A stretch of 6,145 nt of DNA from a virus. Its lineage: Duplodnaviria > Heunggongvirae > Uroviricota > Caudoviricetes. Position numbers and translations under genes: made by a program. Below are positions 1 through 6,145 of the stretch, in pieces; the first letter of the stretch is position 1, and each line of letters begins with the position of its first letter. The stretch spans positions 1-6,145 of the IMG/VR virus record IMGVR_UViG_2703718819_000022; one strand, written 5' to 3'. Below the pieces are notes generated by a model. That model saw only the letters and a program-made list of their open reading frames with translations, ran no database searches and was not told where the DNA came from.

Positions 1-405
1 ATGGATCAGGTCGTTGTTTTTCAAAAGATGTTTGAGCAAGTGAGAAAAGAGCAAAACTTCTCCTGGTTTTATTCAGAATTAAAACATCACCGTATTGCAC
101 ATTACATTTATTATCTGGCTACGGATAACATCAGAATTATTACTCACGATGACACGGTTTTGTTATTAAGAGGAACCAGGAACCTGTTAAAAGTTAGTAC
201 GACCAAGAACCCTGCTAAAATAAAAGAGGCCGCATTGCTTCATATTTGCGGAAAATCTACATTTCGGGAATACTGTTCAACACTAGCAGGCGCGGGCGTT
301 TTCCGGTGGGTTACTGATGTTAATCATAACAAACGCAGTTACTACGCCATTGATAATACGCTTTTATATATTGAAGATGTAGAAAATAATAAACCATTAA
401 TCTAG
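1..405 (+). CDS. hypothetical protein (134 aa), AT-rich; possible accessory/cargo gene; may be 5-prime truncated at the window edge
   Basis: ORF starts with ATG at base 1 and ends at TAG 403-405. Composition is visibly AT-rich compared with the rest of the window. No family recognised from the translation. Confidence 0.45.
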   Translation: MDQVVVFQKMFEQVRKEQNFSWFYSELKHHRIAHYIYYLATDNIRIITHDDTVLLLRGTRNLLKVSTTKNPAKIKEAALLHICGKSTFREYCSTLAGAGVFRWVTDVNHNKRSYYAIDNTLLYIEDVENNKPLI

Positions 406-639
406 CTAAAGTTGGATGCTTAAGAAATGCTGTTATATATAACTAATTTCACTTAACGCATTGATTTAATTAAATAATTTGCACTACAAAAAATGCCATA
501 AATCGCAAAATGACTACACCAGTGACTACACCGTTCGGTGCACTGTATGAAACAACGTGGAACAAATAGACACAAGAAATATACAGGCGGGTCATCTTTC
601 CAGGGGGAAGCGCGCTAATTCATGAGGGGCGTTAATGTC

Positions 640-1020
640 GATATGGGGATCCCCACCTACCGGAATTTTTTTCCGGTTAACTGTTAATCAGGCTGGTGGG
701 TTTTACATACCCTTGATCACCGTAATGATGATCCAGATCTGCACCTTTCCACCAATGGTGGAAAAGCCCACAGCAGGCCGCCCAGCCTCCACCAATGGGG
801 TAAAAGCATCAACCGTAACGAAAGTCGTTATGGTTGCCACCGATACCCCAAATTTGGGTATCACGAGTAAGCCCCAAAATCTGGGTGTTACTCTTACTAC
901 CCAAACTACGGGTAGTTTCCGTAGTTTCATGGTCGAGTTGCAGATCTGCAACTCCCCCATTAACCACAGGCGAATTTCCGCCTTCGGTCATTCCTTAATC
1001 ATCTGCGTAATCATAATGAT
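640..1020. repeat. dense array of short dyad-symmetric sequences (palindromes/hairpins), function unknown
   Basis: Seen directly: GGGGATCCCC 645-654; CCGGAA-T5-TTCCGG 660-676; CCACCA-A-TGGTGG 749-761 with degenerate copy near 787-799; AACGA-AAG-TCGTT 817-829; CCCAAATTTGGG 847-858 with degenerate copy near 872-886; AAACTACGG-N7-CCGTAGTTT 903-927; perfect 20-bp palindrome GAGTTGCAGATCTGCAACTC 935-954; AATCAT-A-ATGATT 1009-1021. Confidence 0.6.
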
Positions 1021-1023
1021 TAT

Positions 1024-1115
1024 TCAGCAAGCGCAATTTTGCGCTTTGCTTAAAGTTCAGCGAGTTACCGCGCCGACTTCCTCAAATTGAGGTTTCCGAA
1101 AATATCAACGGGTTA
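1024..1115. repeat. repeat block A: motif Y (GCGCAATTTTGCG...TCAGCGAGTTACCGCGCC, 1031-1074) followed by motif X (GTTTCCGAAAATATCAACGGGTTA, 1092-1115)
   Basis: Direct sequence comparison with block B at 1205-1277: motif X matches at 23 of 24 positions, motif Y shares two conserved sub-blocks separated by a diverged 13-nt spacer. Order of X and Y is swapped between the two blocks. Confidence 0.7.
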
Positions 1116-1139
1116 ACGATAAACTGGCGAGTAATTAAA

Positions 1140-1156
1140 CTACGAAAATTTCGTAG
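1140..1156. repeat. perfect palindrome CTACGAAA-A-TTTCGTAG (8-bp arms, 1-nt centre) lying between the two X motifs
   Basis: Read directly from sequence; reverse complement is identical apart from the central base. Confidence 0.7.
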
Positions 1157-1204
1157 CTCTGACTATCTGAAAGATAATCGTTGTTCCGGCCTCAGCCGTT
1201 GGCT

Positions 1205-1277
1205 GTTCCCGAAAATATCAACGGGTTAGGACAGAGCGCAATTTTGCGTTATCGGGAATATCAGCAAGTTACCGCCG
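1205..1277. repeat. repeat block B: motif X (GTTCCCGAAAATATCAACGGGTTA, 1205-1228) followed by motif Y (AGCGCAATTTTGCG...TCAGCAAGTTACCGCCG, 1235-1277)
   Basis: See block A. The last few codons of the 93-aa minus-strand gene overlap the end of this block. Confidence 0.7.
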
Positions 1278-1550
1278 TAATCGCTCCGGCTTCTTCCACT
1301 GGTACGTTATTTTTGCTTTTTCCCTGTACGTCTGCACGCGGCGACGGTAGGCCAGCATTTCAAGAACGCGGATCCGTATGTCGCGCATATCCGCATCATT
1401 AAGCTGGATACCATCACGGCGCATCACCTCCGCAACAACACGCACATAATTTTCGGCTGTCACGCTGTCCGGCTGCGTGGCCTGTTCGTCAGCCTGCTGG
1501 CTGATTCCGGCAACGCGACGGATTAATCGCAGTAGTTCGGCTTCTGTCAT
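1269..1550 (-). CDS. hypothetical protein (93 aa) adjacent to cos; candidate packaging-associated or regulatory factor
   Basis: The track ORF 1269..1748 begins at a GTG. The in-frame ATG at 1550-1548 is preceded by a GGGGG Shine-Dalgarno about 4 nt upstream (GATGGGGGCACA-ATG). Translation from that ATG (MTEAELLRLIRRVAG...) looks like a helical protein. No family recognised. Confidence 0.55.
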   Translation of the reverse strand: MTEAELLRLIRRVAGISQQADEQATQPDSVTAENYVRVVAEVMRRDGIQLNDADMRDIRIRVLEMLAYRRRVQTYREKAKITYQWKKPERLRR

Positions 1551-1583
1551 TGTGCCCCCATCGTTCTGATAGTCTGGTGTCGT

Positions 1584-1654
1584 CGGGTCCTTCCTGGAAT
1601 TATGGCCCGTTACGGGGCGGCGACCTCGCGCGTTTTCACTATTTATGAAAATTT
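1584..1654 (+). other. lambda-type cos, copy 1: cosQ-like GTTACG followed by cosN GGGCGGCGACCT (1615-1626), then CGCGCGTTTTCACTATTTATGAAAATTTT
   Basis: Near-identity to the phage lambda left-end sequence as I recall it (GGGCGGCGACCTCGCGGGTTTTCGCTATTTATGAAAATTTTCCGG), including the 12-nt cohesive-end sequence. Forms an inverted repeat with 2110-2181. Confidence 0.8.
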
Positions 1655-1663
1655 TCCGGGATC

Positions 1664-1782
1664 CATGTCCGGTTTCTCTGCAAGTTAACCATATGAAAAA
1701 TATAAAAACATGCTTTCCATGAACCGGACATGCGCAAAAAACAGACACTAAAACCGGACATCGTACCAGTTAACCGGAAGTG
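1664..1782 (+). promoter_or_regulatory. cosB-like region: one CATGTCCGGTT site (1664-1674), an AT-rich spacer (about 1690-1710), then inverted sites AACCGGACATG (1722-1732), AACCGGACATC (1752-1762) and AACCGGAAGTG (1772-1782)
   Basis: Repeats read directly. Their orientation pattern and distances from cosN (about +50, +108, +138) match the R3 / I1 / R2 / R1 layout of lambda cosB as I recall it. No terminase gene follows. Confidence 0.6.
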
Positions 1783-1955
1783 TGCAAAAATCACACGCAT
1801 TGCTGCGCGTGATTAACAATTTATCGGCTTTACTGTTCTGTATAGGCTGGGTGGCGTCATGCCGTAGCCGTTCTCCGTGCCAGCATGGAATAATCCGTAG
1901 TTACAGAGCGGTAAAGTTAAAAATCACTTTCTGTTACGCCATCAAATACGCGATA

Positions 1956-2100
1956 CAACAACCATGTGTTTTTACAAAACCATTTGATATCATTGAATTT
2001 TTTCACATTAATGACATCAAAATACATCGTAAGGTTGTTGTATTTATTTTATTTTTACCTTACTTATCAATTAGATATACCAAACAATTAAACAACAACC
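1956..2100 (-). repeat. second putative terminase-binding repeat set next to cos copy 2: ACAACAACC 1956-1964, GGTTGTTGT 2033-2041, ACAACAACC 2092-2100, with an AT-rich tract between
   Basis: Short repeats read directly. Relative to cosN copy 2 they sit at about +45, +110 and +190 on the minus strand with one site inverted. The motif is short, so chance occurrence is possible. Confidence 0.3.
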
Positions 2101-2109
2101 ACCCCCTCA

Positions 2110-2181
2110 AAAAATCTCATAAATAGCGAAAAACCGCGAGGTCGCCGCCCCGTAACGGGTCCATATGCCGGAAAGGACCCG
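2110..2181 (-). other. lambda-type cos, copy 2 (inverted): cosN GGGCGGCGACCT is the reverse complement of 2139-2150, preceded on the minus strand by GTTACG
   Basis: Minus-strand reading CGGGTCCTTTCCGGCATATGGACCCGTTACGGGGCGGCGACCTCGCGGTTTTTCGCTATTTATGAGATTTTTT aligns at roughly 85 percent (by eye) with copy 1 at 1584-1654, and is even closer to the recalled lambda sequence in the CGCGG-TTTTCGCTATTTATGA part. Confidence 0.75.
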
Positions 2182-2182
2182 T

Positions 2183-2206
2183 AAAAAAAAGCCGGATTTC
2201 TCCGGC
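2183..2206 (-). terminator. intrinsic terminator ending the capsid operon
   Basis: Hairpin GCCGGA-TTTC-TCCGGC (2191-2206) followed on the minus strand by T8 (plus-strand A-run 2183-2190), starting 7 nt after the stop codon at 2213-2215. Confidence 0.8.
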
Positions 2207-2212
2207 CTTGTC

Positions 2213-2626
2213 TCAGATGGTTTTCAGTATGCGATCGATGTCGCCGTCATCGCCCTGGTTTCTGCCATCGTACGCCATGCCAGCTGATACGGCTTGCGGG
2301 CTGTGCATGTCCATAAAGTTTTCAAAGGCTGCGGTAAGCTCTGGTGCAACCTTTGGGCGCTCCTGCTCTATGGTCATGTTCAGGATTTCACGAGCATTAT
2401 CGACGCTAATACATGGCACGTTTGCCATTGCACGTAACAGCGGCTGATAGTCGTTATGTTCATGAAGCGCCATAATCGCATCAGCGCGCGGCTTGTCCTG
2501 TTCTTCCAGTTTGTTGAGTTGATATACGGCCTCGTAGGTTGATAAACCTCTGTCAGCCATTGCCCGCGCTTCTGCTTTAAATTTACTCGCCAGCGGTAGC
2601 GCCATGATGCTTTCATTCGTTGCCAT
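2213..2626 (-). CDS. hypothetical protein (137 aa), last gene of the capsid operon
   Basis: ATG at 2626-2624 preceded by AGGGGA about 5 nt upstream; 12-nt gap after the gpD-like stop; followed immediately by the terminator. No family recognised. Confidence 0.65.
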   Translation of the reverse strand: MATNESIMALPLASKFKAEARAMADRGLSTYEAVYQLNKLEEQDKPRADAIMALHEHNDYQPLLRAMANVPCISVDNAREILNMTIEQERPKVAPELTAAFENFMDMHSPQAVSAGMAYDGRNQGDDGDIDRILKTI

Positions 2627-2638
2627 CGTTTCCCCTGC

Positions 2639-2974
2639 TTATCGCGCCAGCGGCTGAACGGATACGCCAGAACCCGCAAAGGCGGCGCATTTTTTCGCGT
2701 CAGTGTCGGCGCTCTCAGGCCAGTTTACGGCGGCGATATTAAATATCCCCGTCTTGTAACACTGTGCTGATTTCTGCTTTGACGTGTCCACGGGGTACGA
2801 AGTCAGATAAACAGCCTTGCCAGATTCCTGACCATCCCACGGCTTAAACTCGCCATTGTCCGCCAGCATCAGCGGGGTAAATTCCTGAATAACGCCAGCA
2901 TCAGCGGCAAAATGTACCAGCGTCGTGGATACCTGCTGACTGCCTGCAAATAACTCAATGTATGGAGTGTCCAT
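2639..2974 (-). CDS. head decoration protein, phage lambda gpD-like (111 aa)
   Basis: By-eye alignment with recalled lambda gpD: TPLMLADNGEFKPWDG vs TPLMLDTSSRKLVAWDG, and CYKTGIFNIAAVNWPESADTDAKKCAAFAGSGVSV vs [42 protein letters not shown] Shine-Dalgarno 6 nt upstream of the ATG at 2974. Confidence 0.85.
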   Translation of the reverse strand: MDTPYIELFAGSQQVSTTLVHFAADAGVIQEFTPLMLADNGEFKPWDGQESGKAVYLTSYPVDTSKQKSAQCYKTGIFNIAAVNWPESADTDAKKCAAFAGSGVSVQPLAR

Positions 2975-2986
2975 AGAATCCCCCCG

Positions 2987-4042
2987 TTAACCAATTTTGA
3001 CGGTAACAAATTTGCGAATATCTGCCGGAACCGGCTGCGGTGCGCTGTGCGTCTGCACGTACTCAATCGCCGGATCGCCGTCCTCAATCCAGTTTTTCGG
3101 GTAAAACATGTTTTGCGTTGCGCCCGTTCTTACCGCTTCCTGTTCCATAATCGCACCATAGGCCACCAGCCCTTTATTGTTGGTGTTGCCCAGGACCAGC
3201 AAATCAGGCTCAAGGAAATATTTTTCTGTGCCGTCGCTGTCAGTGTATTTGCCGGAATAGACGATAAGGGCCAGATCACCAAGATAGCCCTTAAAGCTCA
3301 CCACTTCGCCCAGGTTTTTACATGCCAGCTCTGCGGCGGATTCTGAACCACGGGAAAGATCGTACAGCTCACGGAATTTTTTAAAGCTGCGTAACATGCG
3401 CCATACATCAACGCCCATAATCATGACGTTGGCGGGGCAACCTGCCTGATCTGCGTATAGCTCAATGTCATAGATTGGATCGTGTATGTCTTTATCCTGC
3501 TCGGACCATTTTTTACCGTCGGCCTGCTCTATGATGTTTTTTTCCGGTATCTTCCAGTCGATTTCATAGCGCTCTATGCCTTCGCCCTCAATGATGTTTT
3601 TTCCGGTCGTTACCGCATTTACCGCCAGCCATTCCACGCGCGCTTTAATGGCGTTTATCTGGCGGCGCATGTTGCCAGTAATCAGGCGCATACGGCGGTA
3701 GGTAGGGTCGTTAAGCTGTGCCGGATCTTCTCCAGCCATGCGCATTATTGTTTTTAATGGATCGATTTCGTGTTTTGGCTTCATGTAGCCAGGGCGAATA
3801 ATGCTGGTTTCGTACCCTTTATCGCGCTGAACCAGGCTACCAACCATAGGCGAACAAAACGCCGACATAGTGACTTCTTCAATATCCAGGTTATCTAACA
3901 TGATGTCCTGTGTGTTGAATGTCGCCACGTTCGGGAAAAACAGCGCGGTAAACAGCGGACTGAATTTAAATTCCGCAATATCCTCGCGATTCAGGTACGC
4001 AAAAAGCTGGTTAGTGTTAAGTGCTATTGCTTTTACTGTCAT
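2987..4042 (-). CDS. major capsid protein, phage lambda gpE-like (351 aa)
   Basis: Full-length by-eye alignment with recalled lambda gpE (341 aa): EFKFSPLF / KFKFDPLF; PGYMKPKHEIDP / PGYVKPKHEVNP; EDPAQLNDPTYRRMRLI / EDPQNLADPAYRRRRII; LRSFKKFRELYDLSRGSESAAELACKNLGEVVSFKGYLGDLALIVYSGKY / FRSFKAVKEKLDTRRGSNSELETAVKDLGKAVSYKGMYGDVAIVVYSGQY; YPKNWIEDGDPAIEY..SAP / YPKNWVTTGDPAREF..SAP. GGGGGTGA Shine-Dalgarno; start overlaps the upstream stop as TAATG. Confidence 0.92.
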   Translation of the reverse strand: MTVKAIALNTNQLFAYLNREDIAEFKFSPLFTALFFPNVATFNTQDIMLDNLDIEEVTMSAFCSPMVGSLVQRDKGYETSIIRPGYMKPKHEIDPLKTIMRMAGEDPAQLNDPTYRRMRLITGNMRRQINAIKARVEWLAVNAVTTGKNIIEGEGIERYEIDWKIPEKNIIEQADGKKWSEQDKDIHDPIYDIELYADQAGCPANVMIMGVDVWRMLRSFKKFRELYDLSRGSESAAELACKNLGEVVSFKGYLGDLALIVYSGKYTDSDGTEKYFLEPDLLVLGNTNNKGLVAYGAIMEQEAVRTGATQNMFYPKNWIEDGDPAIEYVQTHSAPQPVPADIRKFVTVKIG

Positions 4043-4248
4043 TATTCACCCCCGTGAACCTGATTCATACCCAGCGCCGCGCGTAAATAGGCGCGTACCT
4101 GCCAGCCTGTTGACGGCTCAACCATCGCCAGCGGATCAAGTCCTGCCGCAATGCCTGCTTTTACGTTCTGCTGGTGGCGTTCCTTGAGCGCCTTCACGAT
4201 GTCGGGGCTTATGTACACCGAAACACCGCCTTTTTTCTCTTCAGCCAT
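4042..4248 (-). CDS. hypothetical protein (68 aa), first gene of the capsid operon, translationally coupled to the capsid gene
   Basis: ATG at 4248-4246 with AAGAGGA Shine-Dalgarno about 10 nt upstream; stop TAA overlaps the gpE-like ATG (TAATG). No family recognised. Confidence 0.6.
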   Translation of the reverse strand: MAEEKKGGVSVYISPDIVKALKERHQQNVKAGIAAGLDPLAMVEPSTGWQVRAYLRAALGMNQVHGGE

Positions 4249-4283
4249 AGTAAGAAATTCCTCTTTGACTTAAAAAATCATAA

Positions 4284-4299
4284 CTGGATGTTCATCCAG
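4284..4299. promoter_or_regulatory. operator-like dyad CTGGATG-TT-CATCCAG overlapping the predicted transcription start of the capsid operon
   Basis: Perfect 7-bp inverted arms with 2-bp spacer, read directly. Geometry is CTG-N10-CAG, the LexA-box geometry, but the interior is not the AT-rich consensus. Confidence 0.45.
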
Positions 4300-4304
4300 A
4301 TCTG

Positions 4305-4332
4305 ATTATAATCATGATTGCATTTTATGCAA
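4305..4332 (-). promoter_or_regulatory. sigma70 promoter for the capsid operon: -35 TTGCAT (4332-4327), 16-bp spacer, -10 TATAAT (4310-4305)
   Basis: Near-consensus hexamers read on the minus strand, about 50 nt upstream of the 68-aa ORF start. The -35 sits inside a second dyad TTGCAT-TTT-ATGCAA (4318-4332). Confidence 0.65.
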
Positions 4333-4410
4333 TGATGTTGAGTTGTGTTGCAAATTATGAAATGATGATCCCGATCATGTGTGTCAGTGCACAAAAAAAA
4401 CCTCATATGC

Positions 4411-4453
4411 AAAAGCCCGATAAGATGCCTCCTGTACTTATCGGGCTTTTTTT
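4411..4453. terminator. intrinsic terminator hairpin GCCCGATAAG-N12-CTTATCGGGC with T7 on the plus strand and T4 (then T8) on the minus strand; probably bidirectional
   Basis: 10-bp perfect stem 4415-4424 / 4437-4446, T-run 4447-4453, flanking A-runs 4411-4414 and 4393-4400. Confidence 0.7.
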
Positions 4454-4459
4454 GGGTAC

Positions 4460-4481
4460 AAAAAAGCCGGATTACTCCGGC
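4460..4481 (-). terminator. intrinsic terminator for the ssb / 90-aa transcript
   Basis: Hairpin GCCGGA-TTAC-TCCGGC (4466-4481) followed on the minus strand by T6 (plus-strand A-run 4460-4465), 7 nt after the stop at 4488-4490. Confidence 0.75.
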
Positions 4482-4487
4482 TGTTGA

Positions 4488-4760
4488 TTAGCTGTCTGGG
4501 TAATTACGCCATATTTCATCGCTTACACCATCTATACCCATTTCAGCATAAGTGCGATCTACTGCCTTTCTCAGGTCTCCGAAGTTATCCGGCGGCTCCG
4601 GTGGCTTCTGTGCCTTCCTGGAACATTCCAGCCGTCGCATCGTAACCTGATGCCGTTCCTTGTCTGTCTCCACCAGCAGCATGACTTCACCCCATCGCGC
4701 CGATGCCCTCCGGTAAAAGCCTTTTGCCTCGAGTTCCTCCGCTATGCGGTCATGTACCAT
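4488..4760 (-). CDS. hypothetical protein (90 aa) downstream of ssb
   Basis: The track ORF 4488..4880 begins at a GTG inside ssb. The in-frame ATG at 4760-4758 lies just after the ssb stop (4771-4773) and is preceded by GAGGGGG about 6 nt upstream, so the shorter product MVHDRIAEELEAKG... is preferred. Confidence 0.55.
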   Translation of the reverse strand: MVHDRIAEELEAKGFYRRASARWGEVMLLVETDKERHQVTMRRLECSRKAQKPPEPPDNFGDLRKAVDRTYAEMGIDGVSDEIWRNYPDS

Positions 4761-4770
4761 CGTCACCCCC

Positions 4771-5181
4771 TCAGAACTGAATATCATCACCGTAGGGGTC
4801 ATCGTCTCCCGCTGGTGGCTGATTACCCTGTGTGCCTGTGGTTTTGCGTCTGTTCCCGCCAGGACGTGCCGCACGGGCACTGATTACGCTGTCTGCAATA
4901 ACCTGATAACCCTGCCGCGTTTCCCCGTTCTGTCCGGTCCACTGGCTGACCTGCATCGTGCCGGATACGCTGGCAACGTCGCCTTTTTGATGTTTAGCCA
5001 GGAAGTCGGCCTGCTTACCAAATGCGATGACCGATAGCCATAACGTCGCCTGCCCATCCTGCGCCTGACTACATGGCAACGATACCGCCATACGTGCCAG
5101 CGTCATTGGTGTGCCCTTGCTGGTCTGTTTTACCTGCGGGTCGTCCACCAGCCGCCCGTAAGCTGCTATCTGTGCTGTCAT
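4771..5181 (-). CDS. ssb: single-stranded DNA-binding protein (136 aa)
   Basis: OB-fold-like core alignable by eye with E. coli SSB (WLSVIAFGKQADFLAKHQKGDVASVSGTMQVSQWTGQNGETRQGYQVIADSV vs [51 protein letters not shown]). Gly/Pro-rich linker and acidic C-terminal tip DDDPYGDDIQF (compare DFDDDIPF). GGAGAGG Shine-Dalgarno. Confidence 0.85.
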   Translation of the reverse strand: MTAQIAAYGRLVDDPQVKQTSKGTPMTLARMAVSLPCSQAQDGQATLWLSVIAFGKQADFLAKHQKGDVASVSGTMQVSQWTGQNGETRQGYQVIADSVISARAARPGGNRRKTTGTQGNQPPAGDDDPYGDDIQF

Positions 5182-5457
5182 GATTCCACCTCTCCGGTTT
5201 TAACGTTGATGGTTGTTACCTGTTCCGCTTCGGCAATCTCCCGCTCTGTCAGCGTGGCAAAATTTGCCGCCGTCGTGGTCATGAATGCGCTTATCAGTTC
5301 GGGATGTGCTTTCGCGTATCCTTCCCCCCGCGTGGCGGTCTATCGTTCTGATTGCCACCTTTAAAGCGTGCTCTGTCATGTCTAACGCGCGATATTTCGG
5401 TTCTGTTCTGTCTCTGCGTTTTTTGAGTGATTTGTTAAATCTTCCTGATGTGTGCAT
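5178..5457 (-). pseudogene. small gene immediately upstream of ssb, apparently split between two reading frames at a C6/G6 homopolymer (5324-5329)
   Basis: Frame 1 (track ORF 5200..5457, ATG at 5457) gives a plausible N-terminus (MHTSGRFNKSLKKRRDRTEPKYRALDMTEHALKVAIRTIDRH) and then low-complexity sequence. A second frame, open from 5339 to a TGA at 5178-5180, gives protein-like sequence (GEGYAKAHPELISAFMTTTAANFATLTEREIAEAEQVTTINVKTGEVES) and ends in an ATGA overlap with the ssb start codon. The two frames meet at the homopolymer. Confidence 0.4.
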
Positions 5458-5505
5458 TTTTATTTTTACCCTCGTGTTTAAAAAGTTTTAGGTTGTGGTG
5501 CACCT

Positions 5506-5729
5506 CCTCTACCTCTCTACCTAATCATCTTTCATGTCAGTAATGGCGCGGCTTTCAGATGGGTAGAGGGCTTTCGTGGCCCTCTACCCATCCTCTACCC
5601 GCCCCTCACAAACGATCTTAATCATGGTAGAAGAGGTAGAGAGGTTTTATTAGCCTTCTACCTAGCCCTCTACCCACTTATCATGTTGAATAATATGCGT
5701 TTATTTCATTCAGGTAGATGGGGTAGAGG
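5506..5729. repeat. iteron array, putative replication origin: at least 11 copies of CCTCTACC / GGTAGAGG in alternating paired orientation, separated by AT-rich spacers
   Basis: Copies read directly at 5506-5513, 5514-5521, 5562-5569 (inv), 5581-5588, 5592-5599, 5626-5633 (inv, degenerate), 5635-5644 (inv), 5654-5662 (degenerate), 5667-5674, 5713-5720 (inv, degenerate), 5722-5729 (inv). Includes a perfect 14-bp-arm inverted repeat GATGGGTAGAGGGC-N7-GCCCTCTACCCATC at 5558-5592. Lies directly after the C-terminus of the gene at 5744..6145. Confidence 0.7.
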
Positions 5730-5743
5730 GCTTTTACAAAAAA

Positions 5744-6145
5744 TTATAAAAACGCGTCACAATCATCAGTTGTAATTGCGTTGGTCTGCGTTACTCCCTT
5801 AACTCTCCGCGTAATATATTCATGTCCGTAAACTTTTGCCGCTGGCTTCATGGCCTTGCTGAACTCAGCCACGTTTAGCGGTTTGCTCCTGCCTGCGTAT
5901 GCCATAAACGCCAGATAGACGCGGTAAAGGCTGTTTCTGGTCGTGTACTTCACTGAATCGCCACCGCCGCCCATCATCAGGCCGCGTGCTTCCTCCAGAA
6001 AATTCAGGAACTGGCAAAACTCAATAACCGGATCCGTCTGTTGCTTTATTGCCAGAGCTTCATCACCGTCGCGCTGTTCCAGTAATAAAGCCCGTGCCTT
6101 TTCAGGGTCGGCAAAATTAGCCAGCAAGCGACGGATAATTACGGG
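5744..6145 (-). CDS. C-terminal fragment of a larger protein running off the right edge; putative replication initiator (primase/Rep-like) by position next to the iteron origin
   Basis: The reading frame is open to the window edge: the track start at 6127 is a TTG and the codons upstream of it (PVIIRR) continue in frame to base 6145. Stop at 5744-5746 immediately flanks the iterons. Function is inferred from synteny only. Confidence 0.5.
   Translation of the reverse strand, partial: PVIIRRLLANFADPEKARALLLEQRDGDEALAIKQQTDPVIEFCQFLNFLEEARGLMMGGGGDSVKYTTRNSLYRVYLAFMAYAGRSKPLNVAEFSKAMKPAAKVYGHEYITRRVKGVTQTNAITTDDCDAFL

Follow-up and report, generated by a model that had tools for sequence, protein, structure and literature searches.

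The 6,145-nucleotide (nt) stretch of DNA analysed here, which we refer to as the window (positions 1 to 6,145 of IMG/VR record IMGVR_UViG_2703718819_000022), carries two phage head genes on its minus strand. The first to be read (E, positions 2987-4042) encodes a major capsid protein of 351 amino acids (aa) that resembles gpE of phage lambda, and the second (D, positions 2639-2974) encodes a head decoration protein of 111 aa that resembles lambda gpD and SHP of phage 21. Both genes have counterparts in a phage-inducible chromosomal island (PICI), a type of phage satellite that leaves the chromosome, replicates and uses a lambdoid helper phage for packaging via its own lambda-type cos site. The prototype of the Gram-negative PICIs is EcCICFT073, in which the counterparts, c1499 and c1500, were named putative capsid and head decoration genes, respectively (ISME J 2018, PMC6092414).

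The capsid protein matches PF03864 (Phage_cap_E, the family of gpE-type major capsid proteins with the HK97 fold) over profile positions 14-328 of 329 (E=1.2e-48, 166 bits, cut-off 22.9) and the PHROGs family phrog_29, major head protein (3.6e-106). In the PDB, it matches lambda gpE (7VI9, E=2e-80) and, more strongly, 3BQW (E=2e-228), the crystal structure of a near-identical protein entitled 'putative capsid protein of prophage'. At the amino acid level, E of the window has an identity of 95% with its CFT073 counterpart, compared to 43% with lambda E and 48% with E of phage PhiR12. The decoration protein, which is 97% identical to the CFT073 copy, matches PF02924 (HDPD; E=1e-17, 64.7 bits, cut-off 29.1), phrog_49, head decoration (4.2e-27), and, in the PDB, 1TD0 (phage 21 SHP, E=6e-13) and then lambda gpD (1e-9). 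NCBIfam holds no family for any protein of the module. The open reading frames (ORFs), Pfam and PHROGs all agree with an earlier, sequence-only reading of this DNA, according to which the gpE-like gene (4042-2987) is read before the gpD-like gene (2974-2639), and the annotated lambda record has the opposite order, as that reading stated, with D at 5747-6079 and E at 6135-7160. The reading described this difference as an inversion; the order is indeed swapped, but the DNA is not inverted, since both genes have the same orientation.

The whole window matches E. coli chromosomes, with the top match to STEC2018-607 (98% identity over 88% of the window), and the CFT073 chromosome matches with 91.6% DNA identity over 81% of the window. 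The matching region in CFT073 is flanked by roxA/pepT and phoQ, and encodes, in order, an integrase, an AlpA-type helix-turn-helix protein, small ORFs, a P4-family primase, a single-strand DNA-binding protein (SSB), PerC, a hypothetical protein, the major capsid protein, the decoration protein and three hypothetical proteins. Because the window has the same gene series, the counterparts of c1499 and c1500, and the match to PDB 3BQW, we regard it as almost certain that E and D are the central genes of the capsid module in a Gram-negative PICI of the EcCICFT073 family.

The window thus covers the right-hand portion of an EcCICFT073-like satellite, which extends here from the 3' part of the primase gene up to the end of the island near 425-460. 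The satellite backbone is represented by the capsid genes, cos and three genes that Pfam places on one strand, the minus strand: a P4/D5-type primase gene (pri-rep, 5744-6145, cut by the window edge; PF03288, 96% identity to the CFT073 primase), an SSB gene (4771-5181; PF00436, E=4e-17) and a gene for a PerC-family regulator (4488-4760; PF06069, E=1.6e-44). Gram-negative PICIs of this family are ~10-20 kb in size, with most genes in one direction and a backbone of int, alpA and a pri-rep primase with an ori. The int and alpA genes lie outside the window; Int, AlpA and primase are all present in full-length relatives (84-100% capsid identity, contigs of 9-13 kb). Pfam and PHROGs detected no portal, protease, terminase or tail genes in the window. 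Similarly, portal, protease, large terminase, FI and FII had no matches inside any of the satellite loci surveyed below, and were found only in adjoining helper prophages.

Gene order in satellites and phages

The order of E and D was surveyed across phage and prophage databases. The satellite set of 84 loci comprised CFT073 and STEC2018-607 from E. coli, 80 loci from IMG/VR, and one each from Kluyvera, Cedecea, Superficieibacter and Kosakonia; loci L066 and L088, each with a truncated gene, were left out of some counts. The phage set comprised 6 annotated reference phages and 169 loci from capsid-anchored scans of lambda-like, Vibrio/Aeromonas-like and Nazgul/Chi-like type, the latter two having been added because the lambda-anchored scan gave only near-duplicates of lambda. 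The first IMG/VR scan contributed 80 loci, the majority of which are satellite-sized contigs of ~10 kb with a PICI backbone. Scans of genome contigs were less productive: a single capsid protein as query gave no matches, and a capsid alignment only 4 loci.

The order of the two genes separates the sets completely. By tblastn, D lies immediately downstream of E in 85/85 satellite-type capsid genes and upstream of it in 94/94 intact phage-type genes. Iterated profile hidden Markov models run over all ORFs gave E-D in 84/84 satellites and D-E in 178/178 phage or prophage modules. Thus, E-D is confined to satellites in this sample (84/84 versus 0/178), and far from being common in ordinary lambdoid prophages, which would have told against the sequence-only reading, it occurs in none of the 178 phage modules. 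The 13 capsid matches without a neighbouring D are all fragments that are split by a satellite insertion or cut at a contig end.

Several further comparisons gave the same picture. Every annotated reference phage has the order portal, protease-scaffold, D, E. Independent gene calls combined with Pfam place E-D behind int, AlpA and primase in satellites of Salmonella, Edwardsiella and Serratia, and independent gene calls around a 41%-identical homologue in a phage module give terminase, W, portal, protease, D, E. Both orders occur on one contig in at least ten cases, 8 from IMG/VR and 2 from Edwardsiella, in which an E-D satellite lies beside or inside a D-E lambdoid prophage. Among 50,697 phage records in INPHARED, 396 had a match to E, no match to E or D exceeded 60% identity, and every record matched by both proteins has D before E. 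Independent confirmation of the capsid-first order comes from P0030, a protein of 463 aa from a 56%-identical relative, in which PF03864 is followed by PF02924 in a single ORF, as expected of an E-D read-through or fusion.

The surveyed satellite modules come from nine genera and their capsid proteins are 54-100% identical to that of the window. They fall into at least three groups, with 84-100%, ~62% and 54-56% identity to the window. All groups are 41-48% identical to lambda and PhiR12 E. The satellite D proteins fall into groups that parallel those of E. Identity to the nearest phage protein is only 43-48% for satellite E and 35-41% for satellite D. Between satellite groups, the divergence reaches 45-50%, and the order is kept throughout.

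The survey also bears on the idea that the module was captured from an unsampled phage lineage that is naturally E-D, in which case the order would say nothing about satellites as such. The phage sample does consist of four clades in which lambda-like and Nazgul/Chi-like modules dominate, and a lineage outside these clades could have escaped it. However, E-D was seen in 0/178 phage modules, 0/396 of the phage records with an E match exceed 60% identity, and the switch in order coincides with the split between satellites and phages at ~50% identity. We therefore consider such a capture very unlikely.

Organisation of the capsid module

Two additional genes accompany E and D in the window. Upstream lies a gene for a 68-aa protein (4042-4248, minus strand; phrog_3255, 8e-37), the stop codon of which overlaps the E start codon (TAATG). 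Downstream lies a gene for a 137-aa protein (2213-2626, minus strand), the counterpart of EcCICFT073 c1501, which has the same length. The 137-aa protein matches phrog_1999 (4e-64) and, through its C-terminal half, a repeat motif of the scaffold region of phage head proteases: it aligns with positions 494-567 of 583 of phrog_53, head maturation protease (7e-10), and with residues 416-493 of PhiR12 gpC (BLASTP E=1e-11, 37% identity). This stretch of PhiR12 gpC is a repeated motif, of which lambda has a single copy at gpC residues 351-397, inside the Nu3 scaffold frame. Pairwise BLASTP between the 137-aa protein and lambda gpC/Nu3 was not significant; the link runs via gpC of the PhiR12/phage 21 type. 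AlphaFold gives an all-helical model for the 137-aa protein, with low confidence (mean pLDDT 47). Natural variants of 93 aa (P0090, P0092 and P0094) have an in-frame deletion of 44 residues (residues 21-64) that falls between two short 'RAMA' repeats and keeps the Nu3-like C-terminal half.

Satellites of groups 1 and 2 have the 68-aa gene upstream of E. Because group 3 satellites lack both the 68-aa and the Nu3-like genes and still have E-D, the E-D pair is the conserved core of the module. Where the third gene is present, the module reads E, D, Nu3-like. All its genes are co-directional, and their order mirrors the C/Nu3, D, E of phages.

The junctions between the two core genes also differ between satellites and phages. 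In the window, the E-D junction is 12 nt long (2975-2986, minus strand), with the TAA stop of E followed by CGGGGGGATTCT, which contains a purine-rich Shine-Dalgarno sequence, and the ATG of D. The sequence-only reading had the capsid stop embedded in the ribosome-binding site of the decoration gene; the two do adjoin, but in the window the stop lies one base 5' of the G-run of the Shine-Dalgarno sequence and not inside it. In sister lineages, with junctions TAA|GGGGGAGCA|ATG or TAA|GGAGTAAAC|ATG, the stop runs straight into the Shine-Dalgarno sequence. The junction is 8-12 nt in every satellite lineage, with a purine-rich Shine-Dalgarno sequence directly 3' of the E stop. With the ribosome-binding site of D within 8-12 nt of the E stop, the shell protein and the cement protein would probably be made together by translational coupling. 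Phage D-E spacers, by comparison, are 42-62 nt long or the genes overlap, and a hairpin with a T run often lies inside the spacer. A GC-rich hairpin is found in the spacers of lambda (L003 6080-6134), PhiR12 (L004 6935-6991) and Vibrio phage K243 (L007 3445-3506), and it is followed in lambda and K243 by a T run, as in a terminator or attenuator; the satellite E-D junction has no such element.

Terminator-like hairpins bound the four genes on both sides. One, detected by hairpin prediction, follows the PerC gene (4465-4482, minus strand) and forms the upstream boundary of the unit; the other, with a T run, lies directly after the 137-aa gene (2188-2209, minus strand), and is also present after c1501 in CFT073, and is the likely 3' end of the unit. 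The position of these hairpins suggests that the 68-aa gene, E, D and the c1501-like gene form one transcription unit. An Rfam search of the window gave no matches. The gene for the satellite PerC-family regulator (4488-4760, minus strand) sits just upstream of the unit; the title of a 2025 report describes another PICI, EcCIMP1, as repressing the LEE pathogenicity island (PMC11773190).

Origin and proposed function

In neighbour-joining trees, the satellite E proteins form one clade and the satellite D proteins form one clade, next to proteins of lambda, PhiR12 and Aeromonas phage. Relative to the window copy, the median ratio of nonsynonymous to synonymous substitution rates (dN/dS) is 0.15 across 48 distinct E sequences and 0.085 across 37 distinct D sequences, and both genes are therefore maintained by selection. 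It is very likely that the capsid-first order is ancestral to the satellite lineage and fixed in it, rather than the product of a recent rearrangement or of a decayed prophage. A degraded lambdoid prophage, with its head genes shuffled and mostly deleted, might be suspected from the homology of the proteins to lambda E and D and from the presence of a lambda-type cosN, but this explanation is effectively excluded: at least nine genera share a complete, conserved satellite backbone, E and D are intact and under purifying selection, the order is fixed across the family, and EcCICFT073 has been mobilised experimentally as a PICI (PMC6092414).

The satellite order cannot have come from a lambda head region by deletion, because E, D, Nu3-like is unreachable from C/Nu3, D, E in that way. 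We also considered two other routes. A single DNA inversion would flip the orientation of the genes, yet all are co-directional. The circular permutations of C/Nu3, D, E are D, E, C and E, C, D, and E, D, C is not among them. Thus, the view that this is a separate module and not a deleted lambda head region holds, given the satellite backbone, the fixed order, the divergence, the separate clades and the geometry of the gene arrangement. The stronger statement, that the module was independently assembled, holds in so far as its organisation is separate, but this organisation is indistinguishable from that left by one ancient capture followed by rearrangement. Gene order alone is weak evidence for a separate module; it is the context and the phylogeny that carry the argument.

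The E-D pair is intact, coupled and selected across ~45-50% divergence, with the Nu3-like gene alongside it in one subgroup, and this points to a structural role that single-gene knock-outs would have missed. We propose that the satellite would make its own shell protein and its own decoration trimer and, in the subgroup of the window, the small protein with the Nu3-like scaffold motif as well. The satellite shell proteins would assemble on the helper portal, alone or mixed with helper gpE/gpD, into particles that contain satellite DNA, with the portal, protease, terminase and tail supplied by the helper; under laboratory conditions, this role would be redundant with the helper proteins. A decoration protein of the gpD/SHP family is a trimer for three-fold sites of the capsid, and it binds only to the assembled, expanded lattice. 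Since a cognate E-D pair has been kept under selection for so long, the simplest explanation is that a real shell is built. That the satellite capsid protein is built into shells, on its own or in a mixture with gpE of the helper, and that the satellite D trimer cements it is nevertheless a proposal that we make tentatively, with less than even confidence. Taken as a whole, we think it likely that the locus is a PICI capsid module with a fixed capsid-first order, in which expression is probably coupled and which may have a structural role.

A number of observations weigh against this interpretation. Deletion of c1499 or c1500 left both transfer by the resident helper and lambda interference unchanged, the authors found no phenotype for c1499, and with lambda as the helper all packaged DNA was phage-sized (PMC6092414). 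When the genes downstream of the EcCICFT073 ori were expressed singly, only c1503 (rppA) inhibited lambda, and deletion of c1503 fully restored plaques (PMC6739421). The tetA marker of the published strains sits exactly after the c1501 stop codon, and thus the module was undisrupted in those strains. With respect to expression and phylogeny, we found no sigma-70-like promoter upstream of the capsid unit, and the trees of E and D are distance-based, without support values. Finally, 80 loci were kept per scan and many of these are near-duplicates, with 64 distinct full-length satellite E proteins among them.

One candidate explanation for the null phenotypes, that c1501::tetA breaks c1501, was rejected, as the recombineering arms are contiguous in CFT073 and meet after the stop codon, which leaves c1501 intact. 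A more specific version of the structural reading takes E, D and the Nu3-like protein as a minimal shell-building kit, which with the natural helper would produce a decorated shell, possibly of smaller T number, on a stolen portal. This version is rather doubtful, but if it is true, the published null phenotypes would reflect redundancy with helper gpE/gpD or the choice of helper.

Another possible reading is that, with its natural helpers, the satellite uses its capsid protein together with D and the Nu3-like protein to impose small capsids, which would have room for one or two copies of the ~11-kb island but not for the genome of the helper. Such redirection of capsid size has precedents, in that Ccm of SaPIbov5 is a satellite capsid homologue that redirects size (PMC6893505) and PmCI172, which has a capsid homologue, makes small heads (PMC6893505, PMC6092414). 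Moreover, the 137-aa protein resembles the scaffold C-terminus of gpC of the PhiR12/phage 21 type and not that of lambda gpC, and lambda may thus be the wrong helper to test. In SaPI1, CpmB competes with the helper scaffold, and the role proposed for the 137-aa protein would be analogous. We consider size redirection unlikely, however, since group 3 satellites keep E-D without the Nu3-like gene, lambda packaged phage-sized DNA only, and deletion of c1499/c1500 had no effect on transfer by the resident helper of CFT073 (PMC6092414).

The insertion sites of some satellites bear on a different idea, that satellite E (and D) serve as a back-up copy to compensate for a helper head gene that is interrupted by the satellite itself. 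Helper-embedded PICIs inside helper E, B, C and A have been described, and their authors propose this idea (PMC10111431). In our set, satellites lie inside the helper E gene in L068, L069, L089, L091 and L092, and inside the helper portal gene in L033, L079-L085 and L263. But most members of the family, including those of CFT073 and STEC2018-607, are in chromosomal sites away from helpers, the portal-inserted satellites carry E-D and no portal gene, excision restores the helper gene, and satellite E is only ~43% identical to the interrupted helper E. A back-up function is therefore quite unlikely. The satellites of Edwardsiella tarda (L263 and L264) lie inside a helper portal gene, and so helper-embedded PICIs extend beyond Escherichia in this sample.

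Selection on genes that are dispensable for transfer could also be accounted for if the capsid homologue is an inhibitor or decoy, which poisons capsid assembly or interacts with capsid-sensing host defences, and satellites commonly interfere with their helpers. We give very little credence to such a non-structural role, given that only c1503 inhibited lambda when genes were expressed singly and that deletion of rppA restored plaques (PMC6739421), and that a decoy would need no co-evolving cognate decoration protein.

Flanking features and comparison with known systems

Downstream of the capsid unit, the window has a lambda-type cosN (GGGCGGCGACCT; 2139-2150, minus strand) with lambda-like flanks, an exact match of a kind for which none is expected by chance. 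A second exact cosN lies in inverted orientation (1615-1626, plus strand), and the two cos sites fall within 72-nt inverted repeats (1584-1655 and 2110-2181). EcCICFT073, too, carries a pair of cos sites (PMC6739421). Between the inverted repeats of the window is an AT-rich segment of 454 nt without a convincing ORF. In L013, L016 and L017, segment 1584-2181 is in the opposite orientation relative to its flanks, which suggests that the repeats recombine and thereby flip the segment.

Packaging in the EcCICFT073 family combines a helper-type cos site with an Rpp or TerS-like specificity gene. Nearly all relatives have a TerS/Nu1-like or rppA gene at the matching position (compare L001 10084-10518), but no RppA (c1503) or TerS/Nu1-like gene was detectable in the window (1550-2213) or in L002, L019, L021 and L015. 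To the right of cosN, the DNA is very similar to that at the beginning of lambda cosB, and for this reason the window variant may be packaged by unmodified helper terminase. An ORF at 1269-1748 was considered as an RppA homologue and rejected, as it has no PDB match although RppC has been crystallised, and CFT073 RppA has no tblastn match in the window. This ORF is the conserved 93-aa downstream gene (1269-1550, minus strand; phrog_1561), the last gene before the island end.

The similarity to other PICIs ends at ~425-460. Beyond it, outside the island, is a complete DUF1398 gene (1-405, plus strand; PF07166, phrog_413), and the junction on this side is unrepresented among the complete E. coli genomes searched, given that the maximum coverage of the window was 88%. 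In a Salmonella enterica member of the family (L262), a second integrase gene (5214-6194) lies between the primase gene and the capsid unit, and a hok/gef-type toxin gene (9452-9604) follows the Nu1-like gene.

The window element is a member of the EcCICFT073 family, and its capsid and decoration genes as well as the structure of its capsid protein are already in the literature. In the limited open-access literature that we searched, we did not find an explicit statement that the capsid-first order separates the satellite clade from all phages. What the analysis adds to this known family is modest and consists of the order as a marker, the data on selection and the Nu3-like third gene. As a marker, the capsid-first order with its 8-12 nt junction discriminates perfectly between the 84 satellite and 178 phage modules of our sample, and it can help annotation by telling a PICI capsid module from a lambdoid prophage or its remnant, as PICI islands are routinely called 'prophage' or 'viral contig'. 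The results also sharpen a question from 2018, namely what purpose is served by the capsid genes that most Gram-negative PICIs carry.

EcCICFT073 is the closest of the known systems, with the same series of primase, SSB, PerC, 68-aa gene, E, D, 137-aa gene, cos and 93-aa gene. The window differs from it in two respects. First, it has no detectable rppA (c1503) or TerS-like gene, and has instead ~450 bp of AT-rich DNA between the inverted cos repeats. Second, the flanking gene is that for DUF1398 in the window but phoQ in CFT073. Helper-dependent induction, replication and high-frequency transfer have been shown experimentally for EcCICFT073 only (PMC6092414). The helper-embedded PICIs (11capE and relatives) belong to the same family and have the same E-D pair (PMC10111431), but the island end in the window (~425-460) adjoins the DUF1398 gene and not a split helper head gene.

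The lambda-type head module, as found in lambda, phage 21/PhiR12, phi80, N15, Chi-like and BcepNazgul-like phages, has homologous E and D proteins and shares the lambda-type cosN. However, the satellite order is 68-aa gene, E, D, Nu3-like, compared to portal, protease/scaffold, D, E in the phages, the junction is 12 nt in the window compared to 42-62 nt, and the window has no portal, protease or terminase. SaPIbov5 is similar in that this satellite encodes, in Ccm, a diverged homologue of the major capsid protein of its helper (PMC6893505). Ccm, however, has a demonstrated function in size redirection and interference and has no decoration partner, whereas the capsid gene of the EcCICFT073 family is paired with a decoration gene and its knock-outs in EcCICFT073 have no known phenotype (PMC6092414).

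The capsid-forming PICIs (cf-PICIs), of which EcCIEDL933 is an example, have the same int, alpA and rep backbone and likewise encode their own capsid proteins; their gene set includes capsid, protease, portal, head-tail connectors, HNH and both terminase subunits (bioRxiv 10.1101/2022.09.08.507074). By Pfam and PHROGs, this set is absent from the window and its full-length relatives, except for the TerS-like gene in some relatives, and the module of the window consists of a shell, a cement and a scaffold-motif protein only. If the shell-building interpretation is true, this satellite family would stand half-way in evolution, with PICIs that steal whole capsids on one side and capsid-forming PICIs, which take only tails, on the other.

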